From a virus (Duplodnaviria > Caudoviricetes), in IMG/VR virus record IMGVR_UViG_3300030330_001909, positions 1 through 48,954 of that record: 48,954 nucleotides of DNA. One strand, given 5' to 3'. The notes under the pieces are model-generated. The model was not told the origin of the DNA. It did not search any database and saw only the letters and a list, made by a program, of their open reading frames with translations. The translations under genes and the position numbers were made by a program. Shown piece by piece: positions 198 to 48,780 of this stretch; position 1 is the stretch's first letter, and every line of letters starts with the position of its first letter.

Positions 198-228
198 TAT
201 TATCCTGTAGTGTTCGTATTTAGTTTGT
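198..228 (-). promoter_or_regulatory. Repeated early promoter-like motif, copy 1
   Basis: Plus strand TATTATC-N10-CGTATTTAGTTTGT = minus ACAAACTAAATACG-N10-GATAATA. Confidence 0.8.
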
Positions 229-230
229 AA

Positions 231-750: not shown

Positions 751-751
751 A

Positions 752-1510: not shown

Positions 1511-1511
1511 A

Positions 1512-1727
1512 TTATCGTAACATTGTGCCGTAACCTTTACGGCGTGTTAGTTTGGCGATGCGCTTTGCATCTGCTCTGGATAATATTTGTATACTATTAC
1601 CCGTTTTATGGTTGATAACTGGAGCGCAACCATAACGCTCTACGGTAGAACATGGTACACATGTACTATAACCGTACTTAATTCTAACTGGGTGCAGCTC
1701 TTCGCCGCATTTGCAATGTGTATTCAT
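1512..1727 (-). CDS. C4 zinc-finger protein, TraR/DksA-finger-like
   Basis: CKCGEELHPVRIKYGYSTCVPC resembles the C..CG..I...R......C..C finger; likely start is the ATG at 1727, 5 nt after motif copy 2. Confidence 0.7.
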   Translation of the reverse strand: MNTHCKCGEELHPVRIKYGYSTCVPCSTVERYGCAPVINHKTGNSIQILSRADAKRIAKLTRRKGYGTMLR

Positions 1728-1732
1728 ATACA

Positions 1733-1763
1733 TATTATCGATTAGTCTTCGTATTTTGTTTGT
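1733..1763 (-). promoter_or_regulatory. Early motif copy 2
   Basis: TATTATC-N10-CGTATTTTGTTTGT. Confidence 0.8.
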
Positions 1764-1857
1764 GTTTAATTTTACGAGTATATTTCTTTTTATTTCTTTG
1801 TATTGAAGGACGCATAGCATCGTATATTTCCTTCATAGTTACTTTTATTTCTTTCAT
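1735..1857 (-). CDS. 40-aa basic peptide with ArfA-like C-terminal motif
   Basis: MKEIKVTMKEIYDAMRPSIQRNKKKYTRKIKHKQNTKTNR. Confidence 0.6.
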   Translation of the reverse strand: MKEIKVTMKEIYDAMRPSIQRNKKKYTRKIKHKQNTKTNR

Positions 1858-1932
1858 AGAGCGAGAGAGAGGATTCGAACCTCTCATGTCTAGAACAGTT
1901 CATCACTTTTACATATGACACCGAACCTCGCT
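1857..1932 (-). ncRNA. tRNA-like RNA or degenerate tRNA (T arm and acceptor stem, no canonical D arm)
   Basis: T arm AGAGG-TTCGAAT-CCTCT; acceptor GCGAGG/TCTCGC; helix GTGTC/GACAT; ends T-CTA. Confidence 0.65.
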
Positions 1933-1955
1933 GTCCACGTCAAGCCGTCGCTCGA

Positions 1956-2099
1956 CTAGTCGATTACAAATGTTAAACCTTTATAATTGAACCAACTATT
2001 TCTCTCGTATGGTACATCGTTTAACTTGTAACCTTTAATCATTTTGCCATCTAATTTTATTAGTGACCTATTGCTTGGATAAAATTTAATTGTTTTCAT
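1956..2099 (-). CDS. Hypothetical protein, 47 aa (MKTIKFYPSNRSLIKLDGKMIKGY...)
   Basis: Manual translation; ATG 7 nt after motif copy 3. Confidence 0.7.
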   Translation of the reverse strand: MKTIKFYPSNRSLIKLDGKMIKGYKLNDVPYERNSWFNYKGLTFVID

Positions 2100-2106
2100 A
2101 TATATA

Positions 2107-2137
2107 TATTATCTTTTAGTAATCGTAATTAATCTGT
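2107..2137 (-). promoter_or_regulatory. Early motif copy 3
   Basis: TATTATC-N10-CGTAATTAATCTGT. Confidence 0.75.
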
Positions 2138-2380
2138 ACAGTCAGTTACTTTTTTATTGTATTTTAAAGCTAATGAACATTTAGTATTTATTATTACGAT
2201 CATATAGTTATCAGCTACATACCTTGGTATGTCACCATTTGCATAATCTTCTTGTAGCCACTTTTGCATTTCATTTAAGTTATGAATACATTTGTCTACA
2301 TTTTTACTATAATATATTCTATCTCTTTTCATTGCACAGCTACTCAATAATATAGTAATTGCTATAAATATCTTTTTCAT
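2129..2380 (-). CDS. Putative lipoprotein
   Basis: MKKIFIAITILLSSC signal peptide and lipobox. Confidence 0.75.
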   Translation of the reverse strand: MKKIFIAITILLSSCAMKRDRIYYSKNVDKCIHNLNEMQKWLQEDYANGDIPRYVADNYMIVIINTKCSLALKYNKKVTDCTD

Positions 2381-2517
2381 ATAGTTTCTGGTGTTTTATT
2401 TACTAATTCACGCACTTTAGCACCTAAATCAGCGTCATTTGGATATTTAATTTTTAACTCTCTTACTTGCAGCCATCTTACTTTTTCAATAGATCGCCAT
2501 GCTTCTTCATGTATCAT
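2377..2517 (-). CDS. Hypothetical protein, 46 aa (YPND.DLG.KVR motif)
   Basis: Manual translation; ATGA overlaps. Confidence 0.65.
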   Translation of the reverse strand: MIHEEAWRSIEKVRWLQVRELKIKYPNDADLGAKVRELVNKTPETI

Positions 2518-2717
2518 AGTTGTTCAAATTTTATATCACCATTATCATCAAACCAGGTGTGATCAGGATCTATTAGTAACTCACCATCGTAAATCTTTCT
2601 TGCTTGGTTGTAAGCGTATTGCCATTTTTGGGTTTCAGTACCTGCTGTTTGCTTAGTACCATAATATCCGGCTAAGATATCTTTTGTTATAGCCTCTATA
2701 GCTTGTAATTCATTCAT
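2514..2717 (-). CDS. Hypothetical protein
   Basis: 67-aa ORF. Confidence 0.7.
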   Translation of the reverse strand: MNELQAIEAITKDILAGYYGTKQTAGTETQKWQYAYNQARKIYDGELLIDPDHTWFDDNGDIKFEQL

Positions 2718-2877
2718 TATCTATTATTTCTATGGTTCTTTGGTATAAACCTTCTACTGTTGACCACACTTCACGGCCCTCACACTCATCGATGAAGAAG
2801 GCTTTTTCATCTGGAGTATATTCAGTGATCTGAGTTAATTTAATTAACTTGTGAGGACGTGTAGTCTTTACTTTCAT
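2710..2877 (-). CDS. Hypothetical protein, 55 aa (MKVKTTRPHKLIKLTQITEY...)
   Basis: Manual translation. Confidence 0.6.
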   Translation of the reverse strand: MKVKTTRPHKLIKLTQITEYTPDEKAFFIDECEGREVWSTVEGLYQRTIEIIDNE

Positions 2878-3027
2878 TTAGAAAAATGTTCTTATAATCT
2901 CTTTTACTACTGCAACCATTGCTGGTATCCATACTGCAAAGAATATTGTAGTCATTACAGTTGCATAGATTTTTAACATTTTTTCTTCGACTGCTGCATA
3001 GCAGAATTTTATTAATTTAGCTTTCAT
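2878..3027 (-). CDS. Small membrane protein, 49 aa
   Basis: Hydrophobic stretch IYATVMTTIFFAVWIPAMVAVV; ATGA overlap. Confidence 0.65.
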   Translation of the reverse strand: MKAKLIKFCYAAVEEKMLKIYATVMTTIFFAVWIPAMVAVVKEIIRTFF

Positions 3028-3338
3028 AAGTATTCATTTACTTTTTTTAGTAACTCGTGTATTTGTTCGTTTGGAAAGGTAGAATACACTTCATCTACCT
3101 TTGATTTGACATAGTCAAATGTAAATTCTTTTTGTTCTACTGCAAAATAAGATCTTAGTAGATTTGTTTTAGTGTAACCATAAGGAGATTTAACTTTCTC
3201 ATTTATCATGAGCTTCACACTTTTGTCACCATAGATTATGGCTGTTAATAGATTTGTACTTACATTAACTTTTGAGGCTGTCATCTCGCGAGTTATATTA
3301 GTATCATGTACTAGTGCTTTTATTTCTTTCTCTGTCAT
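3024..3338 (-). CDS. Hypothetical protein
   Basis: 104-aa ORF downstream of motif copy 4. Confidence 0.75.
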   Translation of the reverse strand: MTEKEIKALVHDTNITREMTASKVNVSTNLLTAIIYGDKSVKLMINEKVKSPYGYTKTNLLRSYFAVEQKEFTFDYVKSKVDEVYSTFPNEQIHELLKKVNEYL

Positions 3339-3363
3339 ATTATTATTATTACACGTTTGTATA

Positions 3364-3394
3364 TATTATCTACTGCTTATCGTATTTAGTCTGC
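3364..3394 (-). promoter_or_regulatory. Early motif copy 4
   Basis: TATTATC-N10-CGTATTTAGTCTGC. Confidence 0.8.
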
Positions 3395-3598
3395 GATCTC
3401 TATTAGTAGTTCTTCAGTTGTACTTAAATGATGTAAGTAATAGTCAGCTATAGTACTATCCATACTACCACTGTTAAGATCTTCGATCACCCACTCTTGC
3501 ATATCGCCAATGTAATCGATCGCTAGTTCTACTTTTGTTCCGTCAGGTTGGCAACTAAGTCCACTTAGTACACCAACAATAAATATTAGTTTATTCAT
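3386..3598 (-). CDS. Putative lipoprotein, paralog of 2129..2380
   Basis: Likely start MNKLIFIVGVLSGLSC (lipobox); shares the MQ.W..ED...G......AD.Y core. Confidence 0.7.
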   Translation of the reverse strand: MNKLIFIVGVLSGLSCQPDGTKVELAIDYIGDMQEWVIEDLNSGSMDSTIADYYLHHLSTTEELLIEIAD

Positions 3599-3770
3599 AT
3601 AGTTCACTTTGTGTGTTATAAACTTTGTAGACGCATTGGTAAATATCAATGTGAATATCTTCTAAAAAGTCTACAAATTCTTTTGTTAGTTTAGGTGAGT
3701 TGTTTACCTGATAGCATACTTCGCCATCCGGAAGAGTAATCTCAAACTCATATATAAAATCATTTATCAT
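3591..3770 (-). CDS. Hypothetical protein, 59 aa (MINDFIYEFEITLPDGEVCY...)
   Basis: Manual translation. Confidence 0.6.
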   Translation of the reverse strand: MINDFIYEFEITLPDGEVCYQVNNSPKLTKEFVDFLEDIHIDIYQCVYKVYNTQSELYE

Positions 3771-3774
3771 AGTA

Positions 3775-3846
3775 TTAGTTATTAGAAATAAAATCGTAAA
3801 TAATAAATAGTGATATTATTATTGGTGGTATTGTTAGTAGTATCAT
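3775..3846 (-). CDS. Tiny hydrophobic peptide, 23 aa
   Basis: MILLTIPPIIISLFIIYDFISNN; ATGA overlap with the upstream stop. Confidence 0.4.
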   Translation of the reverse strand: MILLTIPPIIISLFIIYDFISNN

Positions 3847-4046
3847 AGTATTTGACTTAGTATTACGTAAAGATTATCTTGTTTGTCTTTACTTAGTTTA
3901 TCATACTCACCATCTGACTTGCCAGGATAACCGGCTAGGTGATTTACTACTTGCTGAGTATATTCAGCTTGTCTTATTGTTTTAGCCATTTCATCAAATG
4001 CTTTTGACCATGACCAATTGCTAGGATTATTAGGATTATAAGGCAT
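3843..4046 (-). CDS. Hypothetical protein
   Basis: 67-aa ORF. Confidence 0.7.
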   Translation of the reverse strand: MPYNPNNPSNWSWSKAFDEMAKTIRQAEYTQQVVNHLAGYPGKSDGEYDKLSKDKQDNLYVILSQIL

Positions 4047-4143
4047 AAGCGTATTTTTAAAAGTTAATAAATTAGTTTGGTGGCATCATATGCTCGTATT
4101 ATTTATAGTCGTTAAGGTATGATGATCAACACCGACTTTATTA

Positions 4144-4174
4144 TATTATCTATGAGTTATCGTATTTAGACTGT
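4144..4174 (-). promoter_or_regulatory. Early motif copy 5
   Basis: TATTATC-N10-CGTATTTAGACTGT. Confidence 0.8.
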
Positions 4175-4276
4175 ACAATAGTCAATGATTACTATGATTG
4201 ATAATATAGTCATTACTGAAATAGTTATGGTAGTTTCTAAGTTAAACCAGAGCATATTTTTTTGATACTTATTCAT
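4166..4276 (-). CDS. Small membrane peptide, 36 aa
   Basis: MNKYQKNMLWFNLETTITISVMTILSIIVIIDYCTV; stop codon inside motif copy 5. Confidence 0.5.
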   Translation of the reverse strand: MNKYQKNMLWFNLETTITISVMTILSIIVIIDYCTV

Positions 4277-4370
4277 TTTAAAAAGGTGTTAAATAGTTTA
4301 TAAATTGTTTAGTAGTGTATAGGTATAGTGCTATACTTCACTGTATGTAATTAAATATTAATTACGAGTA

Positions 4371-4418
4371 AGTGTGACATTAGCTAGCTAGACTATATAG
4401 AGTAACTAGCTATTGTCA
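4371..4418. repeat. Imperfect dyad site A (TGACA...TGTCA)
   Basis: AGTGTGACATTAGCTAGCTAG...GTAACTAGCTATTGTCA; related copy at 5104-5151. Confidence 0.75.
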
Positions 4419-4425
4419 TGTGTTA

Positions 4426-4665
4426 CTATTTAGTAACTTCACTTAAATCTCTACAGAATTTTGGTACTGTATTAGAGTTAGTGTATGAGCCATACTCTTG
4501 AAAGCAAGGCATACTTTCAAACTTTTCTTGAAATGTTGAGTAAATTTCATCATGATCATAAGTGAAAGTTTGATCTTTTTTGTTAGTGAAAGTTATCACT
4601 TTGTTTTCGCCAATTAGAGACTTTCTAATTACGAATCTTTTAGTAGTTAAATTATTATTTGACAT
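4426..4665 (-). CDS. Hypothetical protein
   Basis: 79-aa ORF downstream of motif copy 6. Confidence 0.8.
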   Translation of the reverse strand: MSNNNLTTKRFVIRKSLIGENKVITFTNKKDQTFTYDHDEIYSTFQEKFESMPCFQEYGSYTNSNTVPKFCRDLSEVTK

Positions 4666-4702
4666 AGTTGTTATATTTATTAGTTTAACATTTATTTATT
4701 AT

Positions 4703-4733
4703 TATTATCGTTAGTTGCACGTATTTAGTCTGT
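4703..4733 (-). promoter_or_regulatory. Early motif copy 6
   Basis: TATTATC-N10-CGTATTTAGTCTGT. Confidence 0.8.
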
Positions 4734-4736
4734 ATA

Positions 4737-4862
4737 TTAAATACCATTAAAAGAAATGTAGTTAATAATTCCATACGTTAATACATTGTAGAATATTACT
4801 GACCACATAAGTAAGATAAATATTCCAGTGATATAGTTGAGGTTATTTTTTAAAGTTTTCAT
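4737..4862 (-). CDS. Small membrane protein, 41 aa
   Basis: MKTLKNNLNYITGIFILLMWSVIFYNVLTYGIINYISFNGI; first ORF after motif copy 7. Confidence 0.6.
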   Translation of the reverse strand: MKTLKNNLNYITGIFILLMWSVIFYNVLTYGIINYISFNGI

Positions 4863-4902
4863 AAGCATTATATTAGATTAAGTTATTAAGTTTATTTATA
4901 TA

Positions 4903-4933
4903 TATTATCTATTATGCATCGTAGTTAGTTTGT
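4903..4933 (-). promoter_or_regulatory. Early motif copy 7
   Basis: TATTATC-N10-CGTAGTTAGTTTGT. Confidence 0.8.
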
Positions 4934-5103
4934 AAAACGTAAAACGTTGAGCAAAAATGTCAATTTTAAACGTAAATGCGTATATATGAAAAAAATATAA
5001 AATGATCGCAGGGGGCCCGTAAATCTAAAATTCGTTTTCGTAACGTATTGATTATCAGTAGGTTAGGGTTAAGTACTTTACTTCTATATATCTAATACCA
5101 ATA

Positions 5104-5151
5104 GTGACAATAGGTAGTTAGATTAGTAGAATAACAGGCAAATGTCACACT
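5104..5151. repeat. Imperfect dyad site B
   Basis: GTGACAATAGGTAGTTAG...ATAACAGGCAAATGTCACACT; its reverse complement matches the ends of site A. Confidence 0.75.
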
Positions 5152-5221
5152 GTAAAAAAGTAAAAATAGTGATTTACCTGTAATTAACTAAATTAAGTAC
5201 GTACGAAAAATATTTAAACAA

Positions 5222-17231: not shown

Positions 17232-17677
17232 AACAAAAAAAGAAGTTTAAAGAAACTAAAGTTGGAGCTTTTTTAACAGAAAAGGCTCCTAAACTAGTTT
17301 CACAACTTGGAGAGTTTTTACCTGATCAAGGTGGTCTTGGTATAGTAAAAAACATTATAACAAGTGATAATGATATTGAACCTAAAGACAAAGAAATAGC
17401 TTTAAAATTATTAGAACAAGATATAGCTGAAATGAGTAATATATCTAATAGATGGGCTAGTGATATGAGTAGTGACTCTTGGTTGAGCAAAAATACTAGG
17501 CCTATGACTCTTATTTTTCTTACTTTAGCTATGACAATATTTATAGTATTAGATTCAACAATACTATTGGAAATAAAAACAGGTTGGGTTTCATTACTAG
17601 AAGCTTTACTTATAACAGTTTATGTAGCATACTTTGGTAGCAGAGGTGCTGAAAAAATAACAAAAATAAAAAAATAA
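17228..17677 (+). CDS. Holin-like membrane protein (3TM/GTA holin-like)
   Basis: RWASDM.SDSWLSKNTRP, two TM helices, YFGSRGAEK. Confidence 0.75.
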   Translation: MKQKKKFKETKVGAFLTEKAPKLVSQLGEFLPDQGGLGIVKNIITSDNDIEPKDKEIALKLLEQDIAEMSNISNRWASDMSSDSWLSKNTRPMTLIFLTLAMTIFIVLDSTILLEIKTGWVSLLEALLITVYVAYFGSRGAEKITKIKK

Positions 17678-29301: not shown

Positions 29302-30072
29302 ATGGAAACAAAAGAAAAAAAACCTAAAGTAAAAAAAGATACTTGGGAATACAAAGATAGAAATTACTATTTAATAGGTAACAAAACTCCTTTAACATAT
29401 ACATTACCTAGCAGACACTCAAGAAGATATCCTCTTGTTTGGTTTGACAAAAATTTAGGTTATGAAAGAGAGTTGCGATATGCTACTAATTCACAAACAC
29501 CCTTTGTAGATGAACAAAAAGGTAGTGTTACTTTAAAGCATATTGTATTTAATAATGGTCATTTAAATGTACCAAAAGAAAAAAGAAATTTACAAGAATT
29601 TTTAGCTCACCATCCTCATAATGGATTAGTTTTTGCTGAGTTCGACAAGCAAGTTCAAGCTGAAGATCAGTATGATCAATTAGAAATTGAAATAGCAGCT
29701 ATGAATTTAGCTTATGAAATGGACATAGAACAAGCTGAAGCTATTCTAAGAGTTGAACAAGGAACGTCAGTAGGTGAATTATCTAGTAAAGAACTAAAAA
29801 GAGATATATTAATATTTGCAAAAAGAAATCCTAAATTATTTATTGACTTATCAGAAGATGATAATGTAATATTAAGGAATTTTGCTATAAAAGCTACTGA
29901 AGCTAAAATAATTATTTTGGCAGATGACCAAAGAACTTTTAAATGGGCTAGTAATGGTCGTAAGTTAATGACTGTACCATTTGATGAAAACCCATATTCA
30001 GCCATGGCCGCTTGGTTTAAGACTGATGAAGGTTTAGAAGTTTATAAGTCAATAGATAAAAAACTAAAATAA
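29302..30072 (+). CDS. Virion morphogenesis protein, function unknown
   Basis: 256-aa ORF in the head-tail region. Confidence 0.8.
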   Translation: METKEKKPKVKKDTWEYKDRNYYLIGNKTPLTYTLPSRHSRRYPLVWFDKNLGYERELRYATNSQTPFVDEQKGSVTLKHIVFNNGHLNVPKEKRNLQEFLAHHPHNGLVFAEFDKQVQAEDQYDQLEIEIAAMNLAYEMDIEQAEAILRVEQGTSVGELSSKELKRDILIFAKRNPKLFIDLSEDDNVILRNFAIKATEAKIIILADDQRTFKWASNGRKLMTVPFDENPYSAMAAWFKTDEGLEVYKSIDKKLK

Positions 30073-30087
30073 CAAGTGATTATAATT

Positions 30088-37784: not shown

Positions 37785-38453
37785 ATGGCAGTAGCAACAA
37801 CATTAGCAATTAGTGCAGGAGTAGCTGGAGCCACTCAGTTAGTAAAAGGTGGTATAGCTAAAAGAGCTGCTAAAAAAGAGCAAGAAAAACAAGAACAAAT
37901 AGCTAAAGATAAACAAAAAGCTTTAGAAGAGTTTGAGGCTAATAGACAAGAAGTAATAAATCCATATGAAAATATGGCTAATGAGTTTGAAAATTTAGGT
38001 GTAGCTACACAAGCAGCTAAGTTTCAAGCTGAAGAACAAGATATTGCATTAGCTAATACTCTAGATACTATAGCGCAAACCGGTGGTGGATCAGGTGGAG
38101 CTACAGCATTAGCGCGTATGGCACTAGAAAGTAAACGTGGTATTTCTGCTAGTATAGAACAACAAGAAGCTGCTAATCAAAAAGCTCGTGCAGAAGGCGC
38201 TCAAAAAGTTAATCAACTAAAAGCTGCTGGTGAAGCGTTTAAATTTGAAGCACAAGAGTCTAGAGACATATCAAAACAAGAAATGTTAAGATCAGATCAA
38301 TTAAGAGCTGAGAACTCAGCAAACATGGCTAGACTAGCAAAGTTAAAAGCTACAACTGATATGGTAGGAGCTGTTGGTGGAACTGCTGAGGCACTAGCTG
38401 GAAATATGACAGGTGGTGGAACAATAGGACCACCTAAACTTTTTGGTATTTAA
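37785..38453 (+). CDS. Ejection (internal virion) protein
   Basis: Ala/Gly hydrophobic N-terminus then an A/Q/E-rich coiled coil. Confidence 0.7.
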   Translation: MAVATTLAISAGVAGATQLVKGGIAKRAAKKEQEKQEQIAKDKQKALEEFEANRQEVINPYENMANEFENLGVATQAAKFQAEEQDIALANTLDTIAQTGGGSGGATALARMALESKRGISASIEQQEAANQKARAEGAQKVNQLKAAGEAFKFEAQESRDISKQEMLRSDQLRAENSANMARLAKLKATTDMVGAVGGTAEALAGNMTGGGTIGPPKLFGI

Positions 38454-38465
38454 AACAAATAAACA

Positions 38466-40298
38466 ATGGTAAAGTATTCAGGACAAAGAGCAAAATTAGC
38501 AAATTATCAACAGCGTAATGCTTACGCAGAAGGTTTATTAGATTTAGTAATTAAAAACCAAGAGAGTGCCGCGGCTAGTAATAGAAATTTTAGGGCATTA
38601 GCCGAGCAAGAACAAATAAATGCAAAAGAAAGAAAAGCTCAAGAGGAACTTTTTGCTAATCAACAATTTCAAAGAGCTGAACAAGATGCTGCTGCTATAT
38701 ATAAAGTAGATTTAGGCTCTAATAAGACCAACCAAAACTTTCATGATTACTTATTTGGTATGAAAGAACAATCATATAAAATAAGAACATTACAAAGAGA
38801 AGGTAAAATATCATCTTCTGAAGCTGCGCAAGCAATAGCAGAGTTAAATCAAAAGGTTAAAGGAACTATGGATGAAGCTATAGCAGTAACAGTTCAAGCA
38901 GATGCTTTACGTAAAGGTTTAGAGATACCACCTGGCCAAGCAGGTGCTATTAGCTCAAGAACGCCTGACGGAGTACAACAAGCTTTATTAGGAATGAGCA
39001 CAGGTGACTCAAGATATGTAAGAAGAAATAATGTAACTTATGCTGTAAGAGAAAATCCTAATGATCCTAATAATCCTTTTGTAGCTAATTTAACTCAAAT
39101 AGCTAAAGACTCTGCAGATGGTAAAGATGCTTTTAGTAGTGTACCAGATTTAACAGATGCGTATAAAAATGCTTATAACAATGTAGTAAAACCTGGTGGA
39201 AAAGATAATGCTGATTTAATTACTTTTGAAGAAAAAAGAGTAGGATCTGAAATGGCCACTGTTAAATTCATGACACCAGCACAAAGAACAAAAGCTGCTT
39301 CAGCTATGGTAAATGGTAATCAATTTAAAAATTTACTTGATGATGAAGAAAGAATGAAAAGTGTATGGGCAGATTTAATGGGTAAAGATACTGACTGGAT
39401 GAATGTTGAAGGAAATACTCCTGAAGAAATAGAAGCTAATATACAAAAGCAAAGAAAAGAAGCTGCTATGTTTTTAGCTAATAAAGCATTAGAAGAAAAC
39501 GCAGCTCCTGATGGTGTTAAAATGCTTGTTAAAAGTACAAAATATAAACCACCAGGAAGTAGCAGTAAAAAAACTAGTAAACCTCCTAGTAGAGCAGATC
39601 AAAGATTTGATGCTAAACAAGCTATATATGAAGATTATATTGCACAATCTAGCAATTTAGTAGGTGATTTTGATAAAATAGCAGTTGCTTTAACTGAAGT
39701 TAACCCTATAGATGGTACATACACAGTTGTAGATGACATGTACATAGTAGACTCTTTAGATGATGATACATATGACAAGTATTCTAAAGCAGATGCAGAT
39801 GAAAAAGCTAAAATTATAGACGCCGCTGCTAAGAAATTAAAGATGAAACCAGGTGAAACTATAATTGATGAAGATGGTAATGTAGTTTCAGGATTAAATA
39901 CAGCATCAGGTATTAAGAAAGCATTGACTAAAGTTCATGGTATATCAGCTGAAGATCAAAGAATATTCGACACAAGGATAACTGAAAGAGAAAGAAGAGT
40001 AAAAGCAGAGGCTCAACAAGCTTATGATGCAATAGAAGAAAAGCCTCCTGCTAATAAAGAATACTTTGAATATGAGGGTAAAAGATATAAAAATCCAACA
40101 TACACAGGCGCTAGGTCTGGACAAGGCGGAGCGTTTGATCCAAATGCAAGAGGAACAAAAGCTAATCCTGTACAAGGTATAGCTACTAAAGACACTGCAG
40201 TAGAAGGTGAATACTATATAAACACTGGACAAGGTGATCCTAAAGATAAAGGTAAAGTTTACCAATTTAAAGATGGTAAATACGTAGAAGTTAAATAA
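38466..40298 (+). CDS. Ejection (internal virion) protein
   Basis: 610 aa, helical, precedes the giant protein. Confidence 0.65.
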   Translation: MVKYSGQRAKLANYQQRNAYAEGLLDLVIKNQESAAASNRNFRALAEQEQINAKERKAQEELFANQQFQRAEQDAAAIYKVDLGSNKTNQNFHDYLFGMKEQSYKIRTLQREGKISSSEAAQAIAELNQKVKGTMDEAIAVTVQADALRKGLEIPPGQAGAISSRTPDGVQQALLGMSTGDSRYVRRNNVTYAVRENPNDPNNPFVANLTQIAKDSADGKDAFSSVPDLTDAYKNAYNNVVKPGGKDNADLITFEEKRVGSEMATVKFMTPAQRTKAASAMVNGNQFKNLLDDEERMKSVWADLMGKDTDWMNVEGNTPEEIEANIQKQRKEAAMFLANKALEENAAPDGVKMLVKSTKYKPPGSSSKKTSKPPSRADQRFDAKQAIYEDYIAQSSNLVGDFDKIAVALTEVNPIDGTYTVVDDMYIVDSLDDDTYDKYSKADADEKAKIIDAAAKKLKMKPGETIIDEDGNVVSGLNTASGIKKALTKVHGISAEDQRIFDTRITERERRVKAEAQQAYDAIEEKPPANKEYFEYEGKRYKNPTYTGARSGQGGAFDPNARGTKANPVQGIATKDTAVEGEYYINTGQGDPKDKGKVYQFKDGKYVEVK

Positions 40299-40308
40299 AC
40301 ATTATAAT

Positions 40309-43300
40309 ATGCCAGAATACGTATTAATGGATTCAACGGGTTATGAGTGGACTGTTAGTGAGCAAGACTTACCAACATTCATGGAGCAATACCCAGATGC
40401 TAGGTTAATTGAAGAAAAAGAAACTGAAGGTGAACCTGTTACTGAATCATTAACTGTAGATACTACAATAGATCCTATAGAAACAGAAACGACTACAACT
40501 CTAGAAGCAAACAACAACGTTAAAGGTGTACTAGACAAATACGATCCTGAACGTGTAGCTTTAGTTGAAAGCTTCAGAGGATTAGATATAGATAAAAGAA
40601 GTAAGTTAAGTGAGCAAGACTTTGCGTTTGGTAAAGAAGGTAATTGGGACAACATAAGTGATGAAGGTAAACAAATCATAATGGCTGATTATACTTTTCC
40701 TAAAGGTTATGAAGGACCAAAAGATTTTAATGCTTTTAAAAATAAAATAGTTCAAGATGAAATTGAATATGAAGTAGGATCAGATACTGCTGATATAGAA
40801 ACAAGCGCTTATGATGACTATAATGTATTTGGTAGTGGGTTAGAAAGTTCTCAAGAAAAAGCTAGAAAAAGAAACCAATATAAAACTGATGTTAGTAATG
40901 CTGTTTCAAAAGTAGAAGAAGGTGTTATGCCTACACATGTACTTGATGGTAAACTAGGTGGCGTATTAATAGGACAAGAAGAAAAAGTAGTAGATGATTT
41001 AAGAAGCATGTTCAAAGGTTATGGATTTAAATTTGATAAAGATAAGTCAGGTTTAAGTTATTTTACTGACGACATGATAGTTACTGCTGGCAATGGAAAT
41101 AAAATAAAAATAAAGCTAGATAATTGGACTGATGATGGAGATATAGAGCAAGCTCAAAAATTAAAAAGTTTTTTAGAACAAAACAAAGAAGAATATAAAG
41201 CACCTAATTACCAAGACATGGTTAAAGCTATGGCATCATTAGATGGTGAAGCTTTAGAAAACATGAAAAGAGTTACAGAAGAACAAGATCAAAAGTGGTA
41301 TGAAAACTGGTGGGCTGATGAGATAGACAAAGTAGACGAAGATAAGGCTTCAGAGTGGAGAAATATTTATGACGAAGATTTAGTAAAGCAAGAAACTCAA
41401 AGAGTTGAAAATGATATAGTAAAATTAAACAAAGAGTTTGCACTTAATGAGGCAAAAATAAACGATTATACTAACAAGGTAGCAGCATTACAAGCTCAAA
41501 TAGATGCTGGCAGCCTTGGGCCTGATGAAATAATAGAAAAACAAAACGAATTAAATGCATTACAACAGTCTTTAAAAATAGAAGGACAAGCATTACAAGA
41601 TAGATATAGATCTGAAGTTAAACCAGCTGTAGCAGATTTAAACTTAGTAGCTGCTAAACAAACTTTAGTTGAAGAAGGTAGAGGTGACTTTGGTATAATG
41701 ACAACTAAATTTGCTGGTGGTGTATATGATTCATTAGGTACTTTCTACAATCAAATAGCTCTTGCTTTTCGTCAAGGAGATATTGAAGACATTGCTAATG
41801 GTGATGAAGAAAAGTTAAAACAATTATTAGATAGAGAAGCTAAAATGGTTATTTACGATAAGTTCACAAAAGACGTTGACGTAAGTAATGAATATGAAAA
41901 AGCTTTTAATAACAGTATGGCTGGCGCTGCTTATAAATCTATAACTGAAATGGTTATTGGTCAAATTACAACTCTTCCGCTAGCGGCTATTCCTGTTGCT
42001 GGTCCAATTTTACAAAGAGTAGCATTTGGTAGTATGATGGGTGGTATGGTAGCTGGATTTGAAGCTCAAGAAATGCAAAGTGAAGATTTTGCTGATATGA
42101 CACCACGAGAAAAAGCAGCGTATCAATCAACTATTGGAACTGTTATTGGAACAATTGAAGGTGTAGTAGGACCAGCTGGTAGGTTTATAGCAGCACCTGT
42201 TAAAGCAGGTTTAACTAATTTAATAAAGCAATACGGAGGAAAAACACTGCGTAATGCTGTATTAAAAGAAACATTAAGAAGAACAGCTGGTAAAGCTGTT
42301 GGTAGTGCAGTTGTTAAAAGAACAGCATTAGACGTACTTCAAGATTTTGGTAATAAAGCTTTAAGCAGAGAAGGTTTAGGTACAGCAGCTACCATGGCAG
42401 GTATTGAAGGGCTTACTGAAGGTATACAAGAAGCTGCGCAAATGGGTATAACTGAGATATGGAGAGAAAATACAGAGGCTAACGGTAAGTTGTGGGAAGA
42501 AATAAGTTTAGAAGATGCTGTTAGTAAAATAATGCAAGCCACTACTTTAGGTGTTATGGCTGGTGGTCCATTTGGTGTTATAGCTGGCGGTGCTAATGCG
42601 TCTAGAAGTGGTACTATGGATATGATTAGTGATCAACAGTTTACTTTATGGAAAAGATATTTACTTGATCCTAAATGGCAAAAGCTTACTAGCGATAAAG
42701 AAATGTTAGCTGTACTAGATCCTGATAATGAATTAACAAAAGAAAAGGCAGATCTACTATTAAGAGAATATAGAAATATGGGTGGCATGCTTAGAGAAGT
42801 TGATAATATGGGTCTAACTACTAAAGGTGAAAAACAAGCTTATAAACTAATAGAGCAAAAACAAAAACTACAAAAGCAAATAGATAAAGCCACTGACAAA
42901 GCATTAGTTAAAAGACAAAGAGAAGAGATATCAGCTATTAACGAAGTGCTAGAAGAGATTAGTGTTAATGAAAACTTTGAAGTAGCATATGAAAGAGGAT
43001 TAGCTGAAACTGCTAGACGAGCTGAAATGTCAGACAAAGGTTTTGTTTTATTAACAGATCCTGCTGATTTTAATCAAGCTATGAAAGATATAGGTATTAC
43101 AGAAGATCTTTCAGGAACACCAGGTTATAACGATATTGATGGTACTATTTATATTAATGATAAAGTTGCTAGAGATCTAAGGCAAATAGGTGTAAGCTCT
43201 CACGAGTTACTTCATGGTGTAACTGGTAAACAAATAAAAGCTTTAGGTTTAACAGCAGAACAAAAAGCTGATTTAGTAGATGACTTTAAAAGTAGATTGT

Positions 43301-46300
43301 CATCAAAAGAATTTGATGTGGTAGCACAACGTATAGAAGCTTATGGAACAAACCCAGAAAATGCTACGTCTGAAGAATGGTTTAATGCTTTTGTAGAAGG
43401 TATTGTCAATGATGATATAAAATATGCTGAAGGTACTGCAGTAAAAATGGGTAACTTTTTAGCTGACAAGTTATTTAAACCACTAGGTTTTAGACAAGCA
43501 AACTTTGCTAATGGTAGATCTGTATATAGATTTTTAAAGAGTTATGGTCAACAGTCTAGGCGTATAGCTAGAGGTCAACAAGATACTTTCACTGGTGATG
43601 TAGCAGCTATAGTAGATCAAGGTATAGATACACCAGCTGTAGGTTTAGCTAGTAAAGTTTCAAATGTAGCAGCTACTGACTTAGCCGCACAATATAAAGA
43701 TGGTACAATAACCAATGAAGGTACAATTGATTTTATACAACAATATCATAAGCTAGGTAAAAAAGCTATGGGCTTTGATCAAGCTAAAGGTGATATTGCA
43801 GAATCTGAAGCTATAAGCTTTTTAAATAAAGAGTTTCCTAGTATAATGAAAAACTACGATCCTACTAGAGAATTAGAGTTTTCAACCTATTTAAATAATG
43901 TATTACCTTTTAGAGCTGTTGATTTTTATGAGCAACAAATAGGTGATAAAGCTAAAACAACAAGTACAGATTCAGATAAAGCAAAACAATTAGTAGCTGA
44001 TGAGACTTCTCCTAGAGATACTAGAACTGATAGAGAAATAAGACAAGATGAAAGAAAAGGAGTTAAAGTTAGAGAAAAAACACCAGGTGTATATAATGTA
44101 GATAAAGTAGTAAAAGCTATTAGATCTAAGGCTAAACAACAAAACATGAAGGGTAAAACCTTAAAGCAATTAAAAGGTTTTGCTTTACGTGAAGTAGTTG
44201 ACATGATATCTAGAGATAATAAAGATCTTGCAGATTCTATGTTTAGGAAATTAGAAAAAAATTCTGATCTTAATAAACCAGAAATGTTAGCTATACAGAA
44301 CTTCATAAACTCTAACGTAGACATGGCTAAAGGTTCTTTAATTGAAGGATATACAAGCGAATTTAAAGCTACAGGTGTAGTTAATAAGTTGTTAGAAAAG
44401 TTTTATAACAAACGTAGTGTAAGATCTAAAACAGGGCCAGGTTTAAAAGTACAAATTAAAAAACCTAATATAAGCAATACTGACTTTAAAGAAACATTTG
44501 GAATTATAGGTAATGATAGAGCTAAGTGGAATCAAAAAGTACCAGCTAGTCAAGGTGGTGTTAGTGATATACTAAAAGGATTTGTAAGAAACTTAGATCA
44601 AGTAATATCTAGTCAAGAAATAAGAGAACAGTATATAGCAGACGGTGATAAAGCTGATGCGTTAAGATCATTATCAGATGGAATACCATCAGGATTTTTT
44701 AGTAAATTGACAGTAGAAAATTTAGGTAAAACTTTTGGTAAGCTAAATGAAGGTCAAAAAGAAACATACTTAGCTAACATCCCTTACTTTATAGAATTAA
44801 TTACTGCTGGAGAAAGTGTTAATTCAGCTTTTGATACAGCACTTCCTAACGACTTTTTAACTAAAAAAGTTAAAGATAAAATAGTAGATAATAACACAAG
44901 AAAAACTATTAAAGAAGATTGGAATACTATAGTAGATCAATTTCCTAAAACTTTATATAAGTCTAAAAAGTTTAACAAGACTAAGTTAAATGAATACCTG
45001 CACACAGCTTTTGCTGAGCAAACTAGTAGAGAACTAGTAAGAGATCTATTAGGTATTAACAAAGATGGTTTAGATTGGAGAAGTACTAAACAAATAACCT
45101 CTTATGTTAGTTCTTTAAAAGAATATTTTAGAGATTTAAGAAAAGACTTTAATAGTGATTTAGAGTTTTTTAAATATGTAATTACTCATTTTGAAACTAC
45201 ATTTACTGGTTCGGCTAAAATTGGTGGATTACCAAATCATGTATGGAATAAAGATGGTATATTAGTAGAAGGAAAGAAAACTACTAAAGGACCAGGTATT
45301 AGAAATGGTATATTTAATAATAGAACAGAATTTTATAATGTACTTTTAAAACCTTTAGATACAGAGAATAAATTAAAACCAGTGCGTGGTGGTTTTACTT
45401 ATGATGGTAATTTAATAAAAATAAATAGAGCTCCTCAATCGATTGTTGCTACTAAAAAATATTTAGACGAGTTTTTAGAAACAGGTAAATTAAGTAATGC
45501 AACTTTAAAAACAAGTTATAATGATGCTATTGGTAATCAAAACGCTATAATAAGATTATTAAAGTGGTATAAAGATAAAGAAAAAAATACTAAATCTGAT
45601 ATTAATATAAATGATATAGGTATGTTTTTCGTTAATTCCACTGGAGATATGACTGCTATTTTAAGATCAGCATATTTTATGGATAGTATAGCTTTAAGTG
45701 ATAGTAAAAATCCTAAAGATTATAGGTTTGAACATAACCCACCTGTAAGAGTTATGCAAGTATATATGGCTCAATTTGTTAATGGTACTATAAATGAAGC
45801 TCAGTTAAAAGAAAAGTTTGCAGATACATCTGTTAGTGTTATACCTGAATTAATGGATAAAGCTATTAATATTAGGTATAAAGATACTATACCTATGAAC
45901 TCTACAAGTAGGTTTGATAGGTATTATAATCCTACTACTTACGGTAAGTTCCCATTTGAAATGACAGTGTACACGCCTGTGTTAAATAGCAAAGGAGAAG
46001 TAACATCGTTTAAAAAAGAAGTAAAAGGTAAAGATTTAAGGCAAGCTTATCAAGAAGAACAAGCTGCGTTAAAAGCAGATAAAGAATTAGGCTTTGCTAG
46101 TAAAGTTGCTACAACAAAAAATGTAACTAATGAAGAGTTGATAGATCAATTTGAAAAAATGGATCAATCACTAGTTAACGGAAATAAAATAAATCAACCT
46201 GTTAAAAAGATTAGAGTGTTTGATTTTGACGATACATTAGCTACAAGTAATAACTTAGTATTTGCAACTAGAGGTGATGAGCGTTTAGAATTAAACGCAG

Positions 46301-48780
46301 AAGAGTTTGCTAAAGATGGTGAGAGATTATTAAGCGAAGGGTATAAGTTTGACTTTACAGATTTTAATACAGTTAGAGATGGTGGGCGTGGTCCTTTATT
46401 TGAGCTTGCTAAAAAGATAAAAGCAGCTAGAGGTAATGAAGATCTTTACGTGTTAACAGCTAGAGCACCTGAAGCACAAACAGCTATATATGAATTTTTA
46501 AAATCACAAGGACTTGAATTTAAGAAAAGTAATATAGTAGGATTAGGTGATTCAACAGGTGCAGCTAAAGCACAATGGATGATAAGTAAATATGCTGAAG
46601 GTTACAATGACTTTTATTTTGCTGATGATGCATTTGCTAATGTTAATGCTGTTAAAAAAGCTTTTGAAGTATTAGACGTTAAAGGTAGAGTACAACAAGC
46701 AAAAGCAGATCAAGGATTTAGAAGTGTAGTAGATGTTAATCAAAAGTTTAACGACATAATACAACAGAATAAAGGTATTAAATCAGATGTTGTTTTTTCA
46801 GATGTAAGAGCTAAACTAGCTGGGCAGAAAAACGATAAGTTTAAATTTTGGATACCTTATTCTGCCGAAGATCTAACTGGTTTAGTATATCCATTATTAG
46901 GCAAAGGTAAGAAAGGTAATGCTGATATGCAGTTCTTCAAAGAGATGTTGTTTGATCCTTTAGCTAGAGCTAATGCTGGTATATCAGCCTCAAGACTTCA
47001 AATGATGGAAGACTTTAAAGCTCTTAAAAAAGTTTTAAATGTACCTAAAAATATTACTAAAGAAAACGAAACAGGATTTACTACTGAGCAAACTATACGT
47101 ATGTATATATGGAACTCACTTGGAGTTGATATTCCAGGCGTAAGTAAATCAGAACTTAATAAAGCTATTGAGTATGTAGATTCAAGAGATCAACTAAAAA
47201 CTTTTGCTCAACAACTTATTAATATAACTAAAGGTGATGGTTGGTCAAAGCCTAACGCTGATTGGTTTGCAGGTACTATACAAACAGACTTACTAGATAT
47301 TTTGAATACTACTAAGAGATCAAAATATATGGAAGAGTTTAATAATAATGCTAATATAATATTTAGTAAAGAAAATTTAAATAAGCTTGAAGCAATATTT
47401 GGTAGCAAGTATAGAGAAGCTATAACTAACATGCTTCGTAGAATAAAGACAGGTAAAAATAGAATAAGTGGTGGTAACAGGTTAAGTGACAAAGTATTAA
47501 ACTACATTAATGGTAGTATTGGTGCGATCATGTTTTTTAATATGAGATCAGCTGTACTACAAACTATATCATCTATTAACTTTATAAACTGGAGCGATAA
47601 CAACCCATTAAAAGCTGGTAAAGCATTTGCTAATCAAAAACAATATTGGTCTGATTTTAAAACTTTAATGAACTCAGAGTTTCTTAGAGATAGAAGATCA
47701 GGATTAAGACTAAACATAAATGAAAACGAAATAGCAGATCTTGCTAAGACAGCTAAAAACAAAGGTAAAGCTGCTATAAGTTATATACTTAGAAAAGGTT
47801 ATTTACCTACACAATTTGCAGATAGTTTTGCTATTGCATCAGGTGGCGCTACGTTTTATAGAAACAGAATAAATACTTATTTAAAACAAGGTTTATCACA
47901 AACAGAGGCTGAATCTAAAGCAATGCAAGATTTTAGAGAGATCGCTGAGGTATCTCAACAGTCTAGTAGACCAGATAAAATATCACAACAGCAAGCTAGT
48001 GATTTAGGTAGGGTATTACTTGCATTTGCTAATACACCTATGCAGTATGGTAGATTAACTAAAAGAGCTTATCAAGATCTAATAGCTGGTAGAGGAGATG
48101 CTAAATCTAACATTAGTAAAATAATATATTATACGTTTGTACAAAATATGATATTTAATGCTTTACAACAAGCAGTATTTGCATTAGGATTTGGTGATGA
48201 TGAAGATGATGAAAAGAAAGAAAAGAAATATATGGACACAGCTAATGGTATGGCTGACTCAATATTGCGTGGATTAGGTATAGCTGGTTCAGCAGTGTCT
48301 GTAGCTAAAAACTTTTTACTTGATATATACGAAAGATCAGGAAGGTCTAGACCAGAGTATGTTGATTCAGTATATAAGTTGTTACAGTTTTCACCACCTA
48401 TTAGTTCTAAGATATCTAAGATAAGACAAGCTGCGTGGATGTTTGATAGTAAAAAACGTAGACAAGAAATGATTGACAAAGGATTTAGCTTAGATAATCC
48501 TGCTTATGAAGCTTTTGCTAAAGTGTTTACTGCAACTACAAATGTTCCGTTAGATAGATTATATTTAAAGTTAGATAATATAGAGCACGCATTAGCTGAA
48601 GACACTGAAACATGGCAACGCGTAGCTAATCTACTTGGTTGGCCGACGTGGCAATTAGAAGATAAAGCTCCTGTTAAAAAGAAAAAGAAAAGTAGCAAAA
48701 GAGGAGGTTATAAATCTAGAACAGGTATTAAAAGAAGAAGAACAAAAGTTAAAAAGAAAGTTTCATCAAGAACTTTGTAG
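40309..48780 (+). CDS. Giant multidomain ejection (polyvalent) protein: hydrophobic region, zincin, sigma-like, unknown and HAD domains
   Basis: 2823 aa; HELLH aa 965-969; YDPTRELEFSTYL aa 1183-1195; DFDDT aa 1972; third gene of the ejection cluster. Confidence 0.8.
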   Translation: MPEYVLMDSTGYEWTVSEQDLPTFMEQYPDARLIEEKETEGEPVTESLTVDTTIDPIETETTTTLEANNNVKGVLDKYDPERVALVESFRGLDIDKRSKLSEQDFAFGKEGNWDNISDEGKQIIMADYTFPKGYEGPKDFNAFKNKIVQDEIEYEVGSDTADIETSAYDDYNVFGSGLESSQEKARKRNQYKTDVSNAVSKVEEGVMPTHVLDGKLGGVLIGQEEKVVDDLRSMFKGYGFKFDKDKSGLSYFTDDMIVTAGNGNKIKIKLDNWTDDGDIEQAQKLKSFLEQNKEEYKAPNYQDMVKAMASLDGEALENMKRVTEEQDQKWYENWWADEIDKVDEDKASEWRNIYDEDLVKQETQRVENDIVKLNKEFALNEAKINDYTNKVAALQAQIDAGSLGPDEIIEKQNELNALQQSLKIEGQALQDRYRSEVKPAVADLNLVAAKQTLVEEGRGDFGIMTTKFAGGVYDSLGTFYNQIALAFRQGDIEDIANGDEEKLKQLLDREAKMVIYDKFTKDVDVSNEYEKAFNNSMAGAAYKSITEMVIGQITTLPLAAIPVAGPILQRVAFGSMMGGMVAGFEAQEMQSEDFADMTPREKAAYQSTIGTVIGTIEGVVGPAGRFIAAPVKAGLTNLIKQYGGKTLRNAVLKETLRRTAGKAVGSAVVKRTALDVLQDFGNKALSREGLGTAATMAGIEGLTEGIQEAAQMGITEIWRENTEANGKLWEEISLEDAVSKIMQATTLGVMAGGPFGVIAGGANASRSGTMDMISDQQFTLWKRYLLDPKWQKLTSDKEMLAVLDPDNELTKEKADLLLREYRNMGGMLREVDNMGLTTKGEKQAYKLIEQKQKLQKQIDKATDKALVKRQREEISAINEVLEEISVNENFEVAYERGLAETARRAEMSDKGFVLLTDPADFNQAMKDIGITEDLSGTPGYNDIDGTIYINDKVARDLRQIGVSSHELLHGVTGKQIKALGLTAEQKADLVDDFKSRLSSKEFDVVAQRIEAYGTNPENATSEEWFNAFVEGIVNDDIKYAEGTAVKMGNFLADKLFKPLGFRQANFANGRSVYRFLKSYGQQSRRIARGQQDTFTGDVAAIVDQGIDTPAVGLASKVSNVAATDLAAQYKDGTITNEGTIDFIQQYHKLGKKAMGFDQAKGDIAESEAISFLNKEFPSIMKNYDPTRELEFSTYLNNVLPFRAVDFYEQQIGDKAKTTSTDSDKAKQLVADETSPRDTRTDREIRQDERKGVKVREKTPGVYNVDKVVKAIRSKAKQQNMKGKTLKQLKGFALREVVDMISRDNKDLADSMFRKLEKNSDLNKPEMLAIQNFINSNVDMAKGSLIEGYTSEFKATGVVNKLLEKFYNKRSVRSKTGPGLKVQIKKPNISNTDFKETFGIIGNDRAKWNQKVPASQGGVSDILKGFVRNLDQVISSQEIREQYIADGDKADALRSLSDGIPSGFFSKLTVENLGKTFGKLNEGQKETYLANIPYFIELITAGESVNSAFDTALPNDFLTKKVKDKIVDNNTRKTIKEDWNTIVDQFPKTLYKSKKFNKTKLNEYLHTAFAEQTSRELVRDLLGINKDGLDWRSTKQITSYVSSLKEYFRDLRKDFNSDLEFFKYVITHFETTFTGSAKIGGLPNHVWNKDGILVEGKKTTKGPGIRNGIFNNRTEFYNVLLKPLDTENKLKPVRGGFTYDGNLIKINRAPQSIVATKKYLDEFLETGKLSNATLKTSYNDAIGNQNAIIRLLKWYKDKEKNTKSDININDIGMFFVNSTGDMTAILRSAYFMDSIALSDSKNPKDYRFEHNPPVRVMQVYMAQFVNGTINEAQLKEKFADTSVSVIPELMDKAINIRYKDTIPMNSTSRFDRYYNPTTYGKFPFEMTVYTPVLNSKGEVTSFKKEVKGKDLRQAYQEEQAALKADKELGFASKVATTKNVTNEELIDQFEKMDQSLVNGNKINQPVKKIRVFDFDDTLATSNNLVFATRGDERLELNAEEFAKDGERLLSEGYKFDFTDFNTVRDGGRGPLFELAKKIKAARGNEDLYVLTARAPEAQTAIYEFLKSQGLEFKKSNIVGLGDSTGAAKAQWMISKYAEGYNDFYFADDAFANVNAVKKAFEVLDVKGRVQQAKADQGFRSVVDVNQKFNDIIQQNKGIKSDVVFSDVRAKLAGQKNDKFKFWIPYSAEDLTGLVYPLLGKGKKGNADMQFFKEMLFDPLARANAGISASRLQMMEDFKALKKVLNVPKNITKENETGFTTEQTIRMYIWNSLGVDIPGVSKSELNKAIEYVDSRDQLKTFAQQLINITKGDGWSKPNADWFAGTIQTDLLDILNTTKRSKYMEEFNNNANIIFSKENLNKLEAIFGSKYREAITNMLRRIKTGKNRISGGNRLSDKVLNYINGSIGAIMFFNMRSAVLQTISSINFINWSDNNPLKAGKAFANQKQYWSDFKTLMNSEFLRDRRSGLRLNINENEIADLAKTAKNKGKAAISYILRKGYLPTQFADSFAIASGGATFYRNRINTYLKQGLSQTEAESKAMQDFREIAEVSQQSSRPDKISQQQASDLGRVLLAFANTPMQYGRLTKRAYQDLIAGRGDAKSNISKIIYYTFVQNMIFNALQQAVFALGFGDDEDDEKKEKKYMDTANGMADSILRGLGIAGSAVSVAKNFLLDIYERSGRSRPEYVDSVYKLLQFSPPISSKISKIRQAAWMFDSKKRRQEMIDKGFSLDNPAYEAFAKVFTATTNVPLDRLYLKLDNIEHALAEDTETWQRVANLLGWPTWQLEDKAPVKKKKKSSKRGGYKSRTGIKRRRTKVKKKVSSRTL

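Follow-up and report, generated by a model that had tools for sequence, protein, structure and literature searches.

A predicted sigma domain 2 cassette in a giant protein of marine flavobacterial phages and its covariation with an early promoter-like motif

The giant protein and its sigma-like segment

The stretch of DNA analyzed here, called the window below, covers positions 1 to 48,954 of IMG/VR virus record IMGVR_UViG_3300030330_001909 and is the partial genome of a phage resembling podoviruses, with genes for GroEL/GroES, terminase, portal and structural proteins of the phi38:1 type. The last gene of its virion block (open reading frame (ORF) 40309-48780, plus strand) encodes a giant protein of 2823 amino acids (aa), and our subject is a segment of this protein that may act as a sigma factor on early promoters. 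The sigma-like residues quoted in an initial annotation of the sequence are indeed found in this ORF. That annotation described a sigma-sized segment of 350 aa; a sigma-like part is present, but it occupies only ~100 aa, and the remaining ~250 aa consist of a low-confidence linker and a separate module, here called X. We refer to the sigma-like part as the cassette. Coordinates of all features are collected in Table 1.

AlphaFold2 models of aa 1125-1232 and aa 1116-1474 (predicted local distance difference test (pLDDT) 73 and 75, respectively) both contain a four-helix unit at the cassette. A Foldseek search gave sigma domain 2 in nearly all of its top rows (prob up to 0.99, TMq 0.5-0.6, root-mean-square deviation (rmsd) 2.3-3.3). 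In a VIA-align comparison with 48,161 chains, ranks 1-26 were all sigma factors (Z 8.3-5.1), followed by the first non-sigma chain at Z 5.1, and the longer model agrees. The tool warns that Z values below ~13 can be common for helical bundles; because the values are modest for such a bundle, the weight of the fold evidence rests on the uniform sigma identity of the matches. The closest solved chains are S. aureus SigB (8x6g_H), pro-sigmaK (8vjl_B), Clostridium SigI (8i24_F), E. coli sigmaE region 2 (2mao) and M. tuberculosis SigC (2o7g). The cassette resembles sigma70-family domain 2 (Pfam PF04542) in its predicted four-helix fold (Z 6-8, rmsd mostly ~2.5-3.5), in a (Y/F)DP loop, in the aromatic residue of region 2.3 and in an extracytoplasmic function (ECF)-like spacing of helix 2.4. 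It differs from sigma70-family factors in being embedded in a 2800-aa virion-block protein, in its low identity between alleles and in having no detected sigma4. The earlier suggestion of a sigma domain 2 is borne out by the identity of the top rows, although no Foldseek match reached E ≤ 0.001 and the window's own copy did not reach the Sigma70_r2 cut-off of Pfam. As a predicted sigma2 fold, the cassette is real.

Comparison of 67 copies of the cassette gives a median pairwise identity of 15%. At positions of region 2.2 that bind core RNA polymerase (RNAP), an acidic residue at 1167 (32 of 67 copies) and E/D/Q at 1171 (43 of 67) are partly kept. Aromatic residues at 1183 and at 1194 are each present in 64 copies and R/K at 1202 in 63, in a register that we take to match sigma70 F419, Y430 and helix 2.4. 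In sigma70, Y430 and its neighbors are important for the open complex, and region 2.4 faces position -12 (PMC2613000). One relative (P0044) is 96% identical to the window just upstream of the cassette and 72% identical downstream of it, yet carries an unrelated-looking allele. To judge from these comparisons, cassette alleles are discrete and are swapped among close relatives, a feature that the initial annotation had missed. In one genome, two cassette-like matches of a hidden Markov model (HMM) lie in a single giant protein (G021:C1:16371-16637 and 17322-17636), which possibly reflects a duplicated sigma2. Homologues of the cassette were sought in 16 host genomes, and the best match had only E = 0.009.

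Co-folding with RpoC, which had been suggested together with the sigma assignment, gives weak support. With residues 1-345 of beta-prime from a stand-in host, a marine Flavobacteriaceae genome, the cassette scored 0.49 compared with 0.01 for the best of three controls; contact agreement between runs was at least 90% and the partner pLDDT at least 74. The mark applied to such scores is reached by 116 of 157 solved pairs and 2 of 215 mismatched pairs, but scores at or below 0.60 include only 18 of the 157 solved pairs and both of the mismatched ones. In addition, sigma2 with beta-prime is a solved type of pair, and the prediction may simply reproduce known structures.

Module X is a unit of helices and a beta-hairpin with a homologue in 143 of the 152 giant proteins that have a cassette match. 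It has no Pfam or PHROG match, no usable Atlas match and only chance-level PDB profile matches (best E = 0.034). A BFVD search found a single same-family relative (E = 1e-6), plus weak sigma matches. No sigma4 was found in X by Pfam or PDB profiles, and the fold-search rows of the longer model spanned residues 1-104 only, X not having been searched alone. The initial annotation had noted the lack of an obvious region 4; no match to one was indeed obtained, but X probably takes over the role of region 4, which would then not be dispensed with. Past the cassette by 190-340 aa, a linker of the form (F/A)S(K/x) occurs in 55 of 73 relatives compared with a background of 33%, with F at the FFSK column in 41 of 62. 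The linker motif upstream of the cassette was rejected as a clear signal, being not clearly above background (22 of 73 relatives versus 19%).

Covariation of the cassette with the early promoter-like motif

The early region of the window contains seven copies of a family-wide motif, ACAAA-n3-AATACGA-N9-GATAATA (class I), all on the minus strand within positions 198-4934, facing early genes and with GATAATA at a fixed distance from the upstream box. At two or fewer mismatches, the box has eight matches in the window compared with 1.2 expected. The GATAATA element had been recognized in the initial annotation, but the upstream box ends in ATACGA and the spacer is 9 nucleotides (nt) instead of 10. 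By the tool's estimate, the exact motif occurs in ~480 IMG/VR stretches and the conserved patterns of the giant protein in ~1400. When sequences were matched by the box only, GATAATA followed exactly 9 nt later in 83 of 88 cases (background 0.4%), and the box is present in 13 of 15 near-complete records that bear the giant protein. Conversely, the giant protein is present in each of 16 motif-bearing records, old and new, that the HMM had missed; 15 of them show a cassette-like stretch before X by eye. The first ATG, not always a start codon, lies 6 nt after GATAAT in 53 of 180 sites and 4 nt after it in 39, and GATAAT thereby fits a -10 element. If GATAAT is taken as -12 to -7, the base just 5' of GATAATA is -13, and we use this numbering below. 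The class I motif differs from the promoters of Flavobacteria, which are of the -7/-33 type (PMC13472631). Phage-type early regions with the motif are also present in a Prochlorococcus single-cell contig (L354) and in short contigs (L326-L402) of bacterial assemblies unrelated to these phages' hosts, probably as co-sorted or mis-binned phage DNA.

Covariation of the domain with the motif, proposed as a check in the initial annotation, was found at the -13 base. We collected 55 genomes, 38 of them (the window included) by the motif and 17 by the giant protein, and recorded their class I sites, cassette, X, stand-alone sigma factor and early-gene markers; the 51 genomes with at least three sites were kept, and the four with fewer were dropped. 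The -13 base is genome-specific, as 322 of 364 sites have the majority base of their own genome compared with a mean of 221 and a maximum of 236 after shuffling. The argument that the promoter is invariant, and that there can be no covariation, was dropped at this point. Cassette distance correlates with the -13 profile (Mantel r = 0.35, p = 5e-5, 51 genomes), and the partial correlation is 0.58 with early genes, zincin and X held constant (28 genomes). The distance of the stand-alone sigma factor does not correlate with -13 (r = 0.02, p = 0.40, 34 genomes), and early-gene distance does not predict the base. Among 28 positions scanned, the strongest cassette signals are at -13 and -14. X distance tracks two positions of the upstream box (r = 0.19-0.36, p = 1e-4 to 3e-3), which cassette distance does not. 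In these sequence comparisons, the early motif is linked through one of its halves to the cassette and through the other to module X.

The association was also evaluated on trees. A tree built from early and middle genes of 41 genomes offered 12 independent pairs with unlike cassette types; the -13 base differed in the same direction in 8.6 of them and in the opposite direction in 0.5 (median p = 0.02). The -13 base requires 14 changes on this tree compared with 9 on the cassette tree.

A candidate reader of the base is the residue at 1205, which is Asp in the window and lies 11 residues past the aromatic of helix 2.4. G is the -13 base in 22 of 23 genomes with Glu at the equivalent position compared with 6 of 28 genomes without it. 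The prediction that Glu goes with G was fixed in writing before a held-out test on 30 new records, 13 of which had a cassette match. Both genomes with Glu had only G (7 of 7 and 3 of 3 sites), and none of the 11 others had a G majority, one of them being a tie; the difference is significant with p = 0.013 by Fisher's exact test. In one genome (G417) the cassette is 71% identical to a G-type allele, with Thr in place of Glu and Gly in place of Arg at 1174, and all six sites have T. T100 of B. subtilis sigmaH is a probable parallel at -13, one not found in the literature searched. Precedents for a Glu reading the C of a G:C pair are E458 and E585 of sigma70 (PMC2613000), and the available part of Todor et al. 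(2020) has nothing on the position of interest.

Interpretation and alternatives

Phage early genes are known to be started from host-type promoters or by an injected polymerase. The results above lead us to propose a different arrangement, in which the segment is probably an injected two-module sigma factor (sigma2-X) that directs host core RNAP to the class I early promoters. In this model the giant protein would be ejected with the genome, and sigma2-X might be released by the neighboring zincin at the (F/A)SK linkers. Sigma2 would dock on the beta-prime clamp helices and would read and melt GATAATA together with the adjoining 5' base at -13, while X, joined to it by a flexible linker, would read ACAAA-n3-AATACGA in place of sigma4. 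The early transcripts would include that of the stand-alone full-length sigma factor, which would then serve a second class of promoters (class II). Because the core promoter is constant family-wide, cassette alleles would be freely swappable, with the early -13 base then shifting to suit the new allele.

The packaging of the giant protein and its ejection with the DNA are drawn from gene position and from synteny with Flavobacterium phage elemoF, where the equivalent position is occupied by a 3694-aa protein labeled "structural protein" by its depositors and sharing the zincin domain (E = 8e-10). In the 49.8 kb of elemoF that were covered, the giant protein with its zincin is accompanied by neither cassette, X nor class I motif, and the early region contains eight TAnnTTTG sites compared with 2.6 expected. 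Cassette and X are likewise both absent from the giant protein of Maribacter phage Panino. The interpretation as an injected sigma factor is partly supported by the predicted fold, the covariation with its held-out genomes, the joint absence in elemoF and the rarity of the motif in hosts.

Known systems offer partial analogies. Chain F of 7d7d, which we take to be T4 gp55, is similar to the cassette (Z 7.7, rmsd 3.4, 94 aligned residues) and is a phage factor consisting of sigma2 only that redirects host core RNAP. However, gp55 is produced in the infected cell, acts on late genes and depends on gp33/gp45, whereas sigma2-X would be injected, would serve early genes and would bring its own module for the upstream box. 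Sigma factors of the SigI type combine sigma2 with a C-terminal DNA-binding domain other than sigma4 that reads an A-rich upstream element; sigma2-X resembles them in joining sigma2 to an unrelated domain, and differs in that no solved chain similar to X was found and in its phage virion context. In N4 and crAss-like phages, the largest ejection protein is a virion RNA polymerase, with which early transcription can begin before any new protein is made (PMC13434306, PMC4496689). Those systems inject polymerases, whereas the giant protein here would give only specificity to the host core: as the initial annotation had stated, it has no RNAP motif, with DxDxD absent from all 2823 aa and no RNAP family among its Pfam or PHROGs matches. 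A hidden RNAP was ruled out on the same ground, the acidic motif present being of the HAD type. Polyvalent proteins are large, injected and multidomain; zincin has been proposed to process them, and some jump-start transcription (Iyer et al. 2017, PMC5512222). The word "sigma" does not occur in the main text of that paper, and no virion-delivered sigma factor is described in the titles and abstract starts of the literature searched.

If true, injection of a specificity factor would add a third route to early transcription, in an abundant group of uncultured marine phages. The cassettes would form a naturally occurring collection of sigma2 alleles, paired with fitting promoters, from which -10/-13 recognition could be decoded, X would be a likely new DNA-binding fold replacing sigma4, and the pair would provide an orthogonal promoter system for Bacteroidota.

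A number of observations weigh against this interpretation. Some concern the -13 code. With one genome per cassette cluster, the Mantel correlation falls to r = 0.135 (p = 0.014) for clusters at 50% identity and to 0.03 (p = 0.32) at 35%, which indicates that the correlation is largely due to a common base in genomes with similar cassettes. The Glu rule was chosen post hoc, and the association is equally strong for columns 1174 and 1142, so 1205 is not singled out. One genome (G025) has Glu and yet A in 9 of 9 sites, and six genomes without Glu have G. Three near-alike cassettes differ in their -13 bases (six G and two C in G019, seven A and two C in G419, four A and five G in G430), and the window itself is mixed (four A, two C, one G). 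In a batch missed by the HMM, 15 cassette-like stretches included none with Glu, and 4 of the 15 had a G majority (pooled p = 0.04), these being exceptions to the rule. The correlations of X with the upstream box are weaker and come from the original genome set only.

Other points concern the cassette and the promoters. Sequence similarity to sigma factors is marginal: Sigma70_r2 was matched weakly in 3 of 67 relatives' copies (best E = 4e-4), and the best PDB match of the cassette profile is a sigma factor at E = 0.26. A median identity of 15% is odd for the reader of a fixed -10 box. The window's copy has E1167 but S1170 and F1171, and it is without the Q/E pair that presumably binds core in region 2.2 of sigma70. 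Two near-complete genomes with the giant protein, G060 and G077, have no match to the box. Sites of the host type (TTG/TAnnTTTG) occur 0-3 times per early region of the family (0.1-0.3 expected), which leaves room for a kick-start by the host sigma; the absence of such sites can therefore not be used as an argument. The family also lacks a cultured member, as tblastn searches of INPHARED with the segment and with the C-terminal part of the giant protein gave no match. As a separate observation, G060 (L031, L305) carries a G-type cassette, and in both G060 and G077 (L062, L306) the early region may be missing or another promoter used.

The cassette could alternatively be a sigma mimic that occupies host core RNAP for shut-off or soaks up anti-sigma factors or defence sensors, with another factor reading class I. 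Its extreme divergence and allele swapping resemble an arms race, and the domains of polyvalent-type proteins are mostly conflict effectors (PMC5512222). A decoy, however, does not explain why the -13 base, in promoters unlinked to the cassette, should change with it in independent pairs and in held-out genomes, and the conserved face of the cassette is the one facing DNA. We regard a mimic as unlikely.

We consider similarly improbable that class I is read, after a kick-start by the host sigma, by the stand-alone phage sigma factor or another activator made early, with the covariation reflecting shared ancestry or linkage. The stand-alone factor, also missed by the initial annotation, is a conserved protein of 249 aa (Sigma70_r2 and r4, ~70% identical) found in 7 of 7 near-complete relatives examined; some early regions have host-type promoters. 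However, the sequence of this factor has no predictive power for -13 (r = 0.02-0.06 over analyses), early-gene distance has none either, and the gene lies downstream of class I promoters, in a replication module that is missing from the partial genome of the window. A natural target for it is the class II motif, TAAA-N14-GTRANTATA, which is located immediately after the gene of this factor and also ahead of late genes. In G024 and six other relatives, the gene (L310:9618-10364, minus strand) is preceded by a 206-aa helix-turn-helix (HTH) gene.

Given copies of the motif in bacterial genomes, a host alternative (ECF-type) sigma factor of certain Flavobacteriaceae might read it, the phages having copied a host promoter. 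The exact motif occurs in 78 stretches of GTDB genomes, many of them short contigs resembling binned phage DNA, and in ~20 Bacteroidota contigs, named isolates included, it is intergenic, co-oriented and upstream of genes; the hosts carry 4-20 genes containing sigma2. In 301 unselected Flavobacteriaceae genomes, however, the motif is not enriched (86 matches versus ~103 for the reversed pattern, by hand count), by which a general host promoter was ruled out. Even selected genomes have only 1-4 copies, mostly with no adjacent sigma gene. Twelve host stretches were read from end to end; there the sites mostly precede accessory genes of low GC content (for MORN-repeat, TerB, trypsin- or caspase-like and small secreted proteins), and several lie near AbiH, DISARM, Zorya II or restriction genes (L433-L444; G098-G110 islands). 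A host sigma factor, moreover, cannot account for covariation with a phage protein, and we find this origin of the motif very unlikely.

The host copies themselves may be phage-triggered host promoters, possibly a new class if the model holds, or may belong to a clade-specific host sigma factor. At -13, T is the base of 13 of the 22 host sites, unlike most phage copies. Two host island proteins end in a homologue of the first early protein of the phage (pairwise E = 7e-11 and 6e-9; family of 66). These proteins of ~350 aa (L435:9833-10966 and L438:7754-8797, both minus strand) have by eye an N-terminal HNH-like HCH motif and resemble nucleases into which a phage decoy has been built; one of them immediately follows an exact class I site. 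It is possible, and we suggest only tentatively, that a virion-delivered and protease-released sigma2-X with a one-residue -13 code also switches on host defence-island genes placed behind the phage promoter, including the putative nuclease fused to a copy of the first early protein.

Finally, the unit could be the class I sigma factor without being delivered by the virion in active form, either made late and carried over or needing, for example, the injected 610-aa subunit, as it is placed in the virion by the position of its gene and by the annotation of a relative, and cleavage is suggested by linker motifs; this is also very unlikely, given that the gene is last in the late block and its targets are early, so that presumably only packaging gives the right timing.

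Neighboring genes and features of the giant protein

The capsid protein of the window shares 40-43% identity with its counterparts in cultured phages of Flavobacterium, Maribacter and Cellulophaga, and on this ground we group the phage with the group 2 Flavobacteriaceae environmental phages, or phi38:1 relatives, of Nishimura et al. (2017, PMC5332604), who also mention a stand-alone sigma-70 gene. Elemovirus, the Callevirus-type Cellulophaga phages and Panino share GroEL and the virion gene order at this level of capsid identity. Upstream of the giant gene are portal, capsid, adaptor and crAss-muzzle-like genes, then two smaller helical ORFs, whose counterparts by position in elemoF are a 205-aa "structural protein" and a 449-aa ORF. 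The core clusters of the family (L307-L325) include primase-helicase, ligase, ERF, exonuclease, thymidylate synthase and class II ribonucleotide reductase, with no DNA or RNA polymerase among 40 shared ORFs scanned, which do not cover all ORFs.

Table 1. Features of the window, by position
Feature	Position	Strand	Basis or remark
Class I site 7 (box-N9-GATAATA)	198..229	-	Motif search
Class I site 6	1733..1764	-	Motif search
Class I site 5	2107..2138	-	Motif search
Class I site 4	3364..3395	-	Motif search
Class I site 3	4144..4175	-	Motif search
Conserved 79-aa first early protein; homologue fused into host island proteins	4426..4665	-	Core cluster in 7/8 genomes
Class I site 2, upstream of the 79-aa first early gene	4703..4734	-	Motif search
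Class I site 1	4903..4934	-	Motif search
Class II promoter-like site (TAAA-N14-GTGATTATA), candidate target of stand-alone sigma	30057..30084	+	Motif search
Two smaller helical ORFs (222 and 610 aa), other putative ejection proteins	37785..40298	+	Position before giant gene
Giant 2823-aa multidomain (polyvalent-type) protein, putative ejection/cargo protein	40309..48780	+	ORF; last gene of virion block
Zincin metallopeptidase motif HELLH (aa 965-969), candidate self-processing protease	43201..43215	+	Sequence
ASK linker before cassette, candidate cleavage site (weak)	43648..43656	+	Upstream linker pattern in relatives
Sigma domain 2-like cassette (aa ~1117-1216), hypervariable, exchanged between close relatives	43657..43956	+	Predicted folds and fold searches
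D1205 (11 residues past the aromatic of helix 2.4), candidate reader of the -13 base	43921..43923	+	Glu here goes with G
Module X (aa ~1264-1456), ~200 aa, candidate upstream-box reader replacing sigma4	44098..44676	+	Confident part of aa 1116-1474 model
FFSK linker closing the segment, candidate cleavage site	44695..44706	+	Linker pattern in relatives
HAD-superfamily phosphatase-like domain (DFDDT, TAR, FADD), approximate limits	46270..46720	+	Sequence; homologous part of a relative matches PHROG polynucleotide kinase family

The giant protein has the layout of a polyvalent protein, with a HELLH zincin, a sigma2-like and a HAD-like domain in one polypeptide and a middle part that varies among relatives. 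The zincin motif lies ~150 aa N-terminal of the sigma2 cassette, and HExxH or a variant is present in the ORFs of 72 of 82 relatives. Giant proteins of relatives additionally bear kinase and DUF domains, and in one giant ORF (L074, 4106-10273) a kinase-like P-loop domain (GGPGAGKT) occupies the usual place of the cassette. The C-terminus (window positions 48700-48780) is a strongly basic tail, KKKKKSS...RRRTKVKKK, that is basic in relatives too and is possibly a handle for DNA binding or packaging. Between the diverging early and late arms, a non-coding gap at 4940-5220 contains a GGGCCCCC run and is a possible genome end or packaging site.

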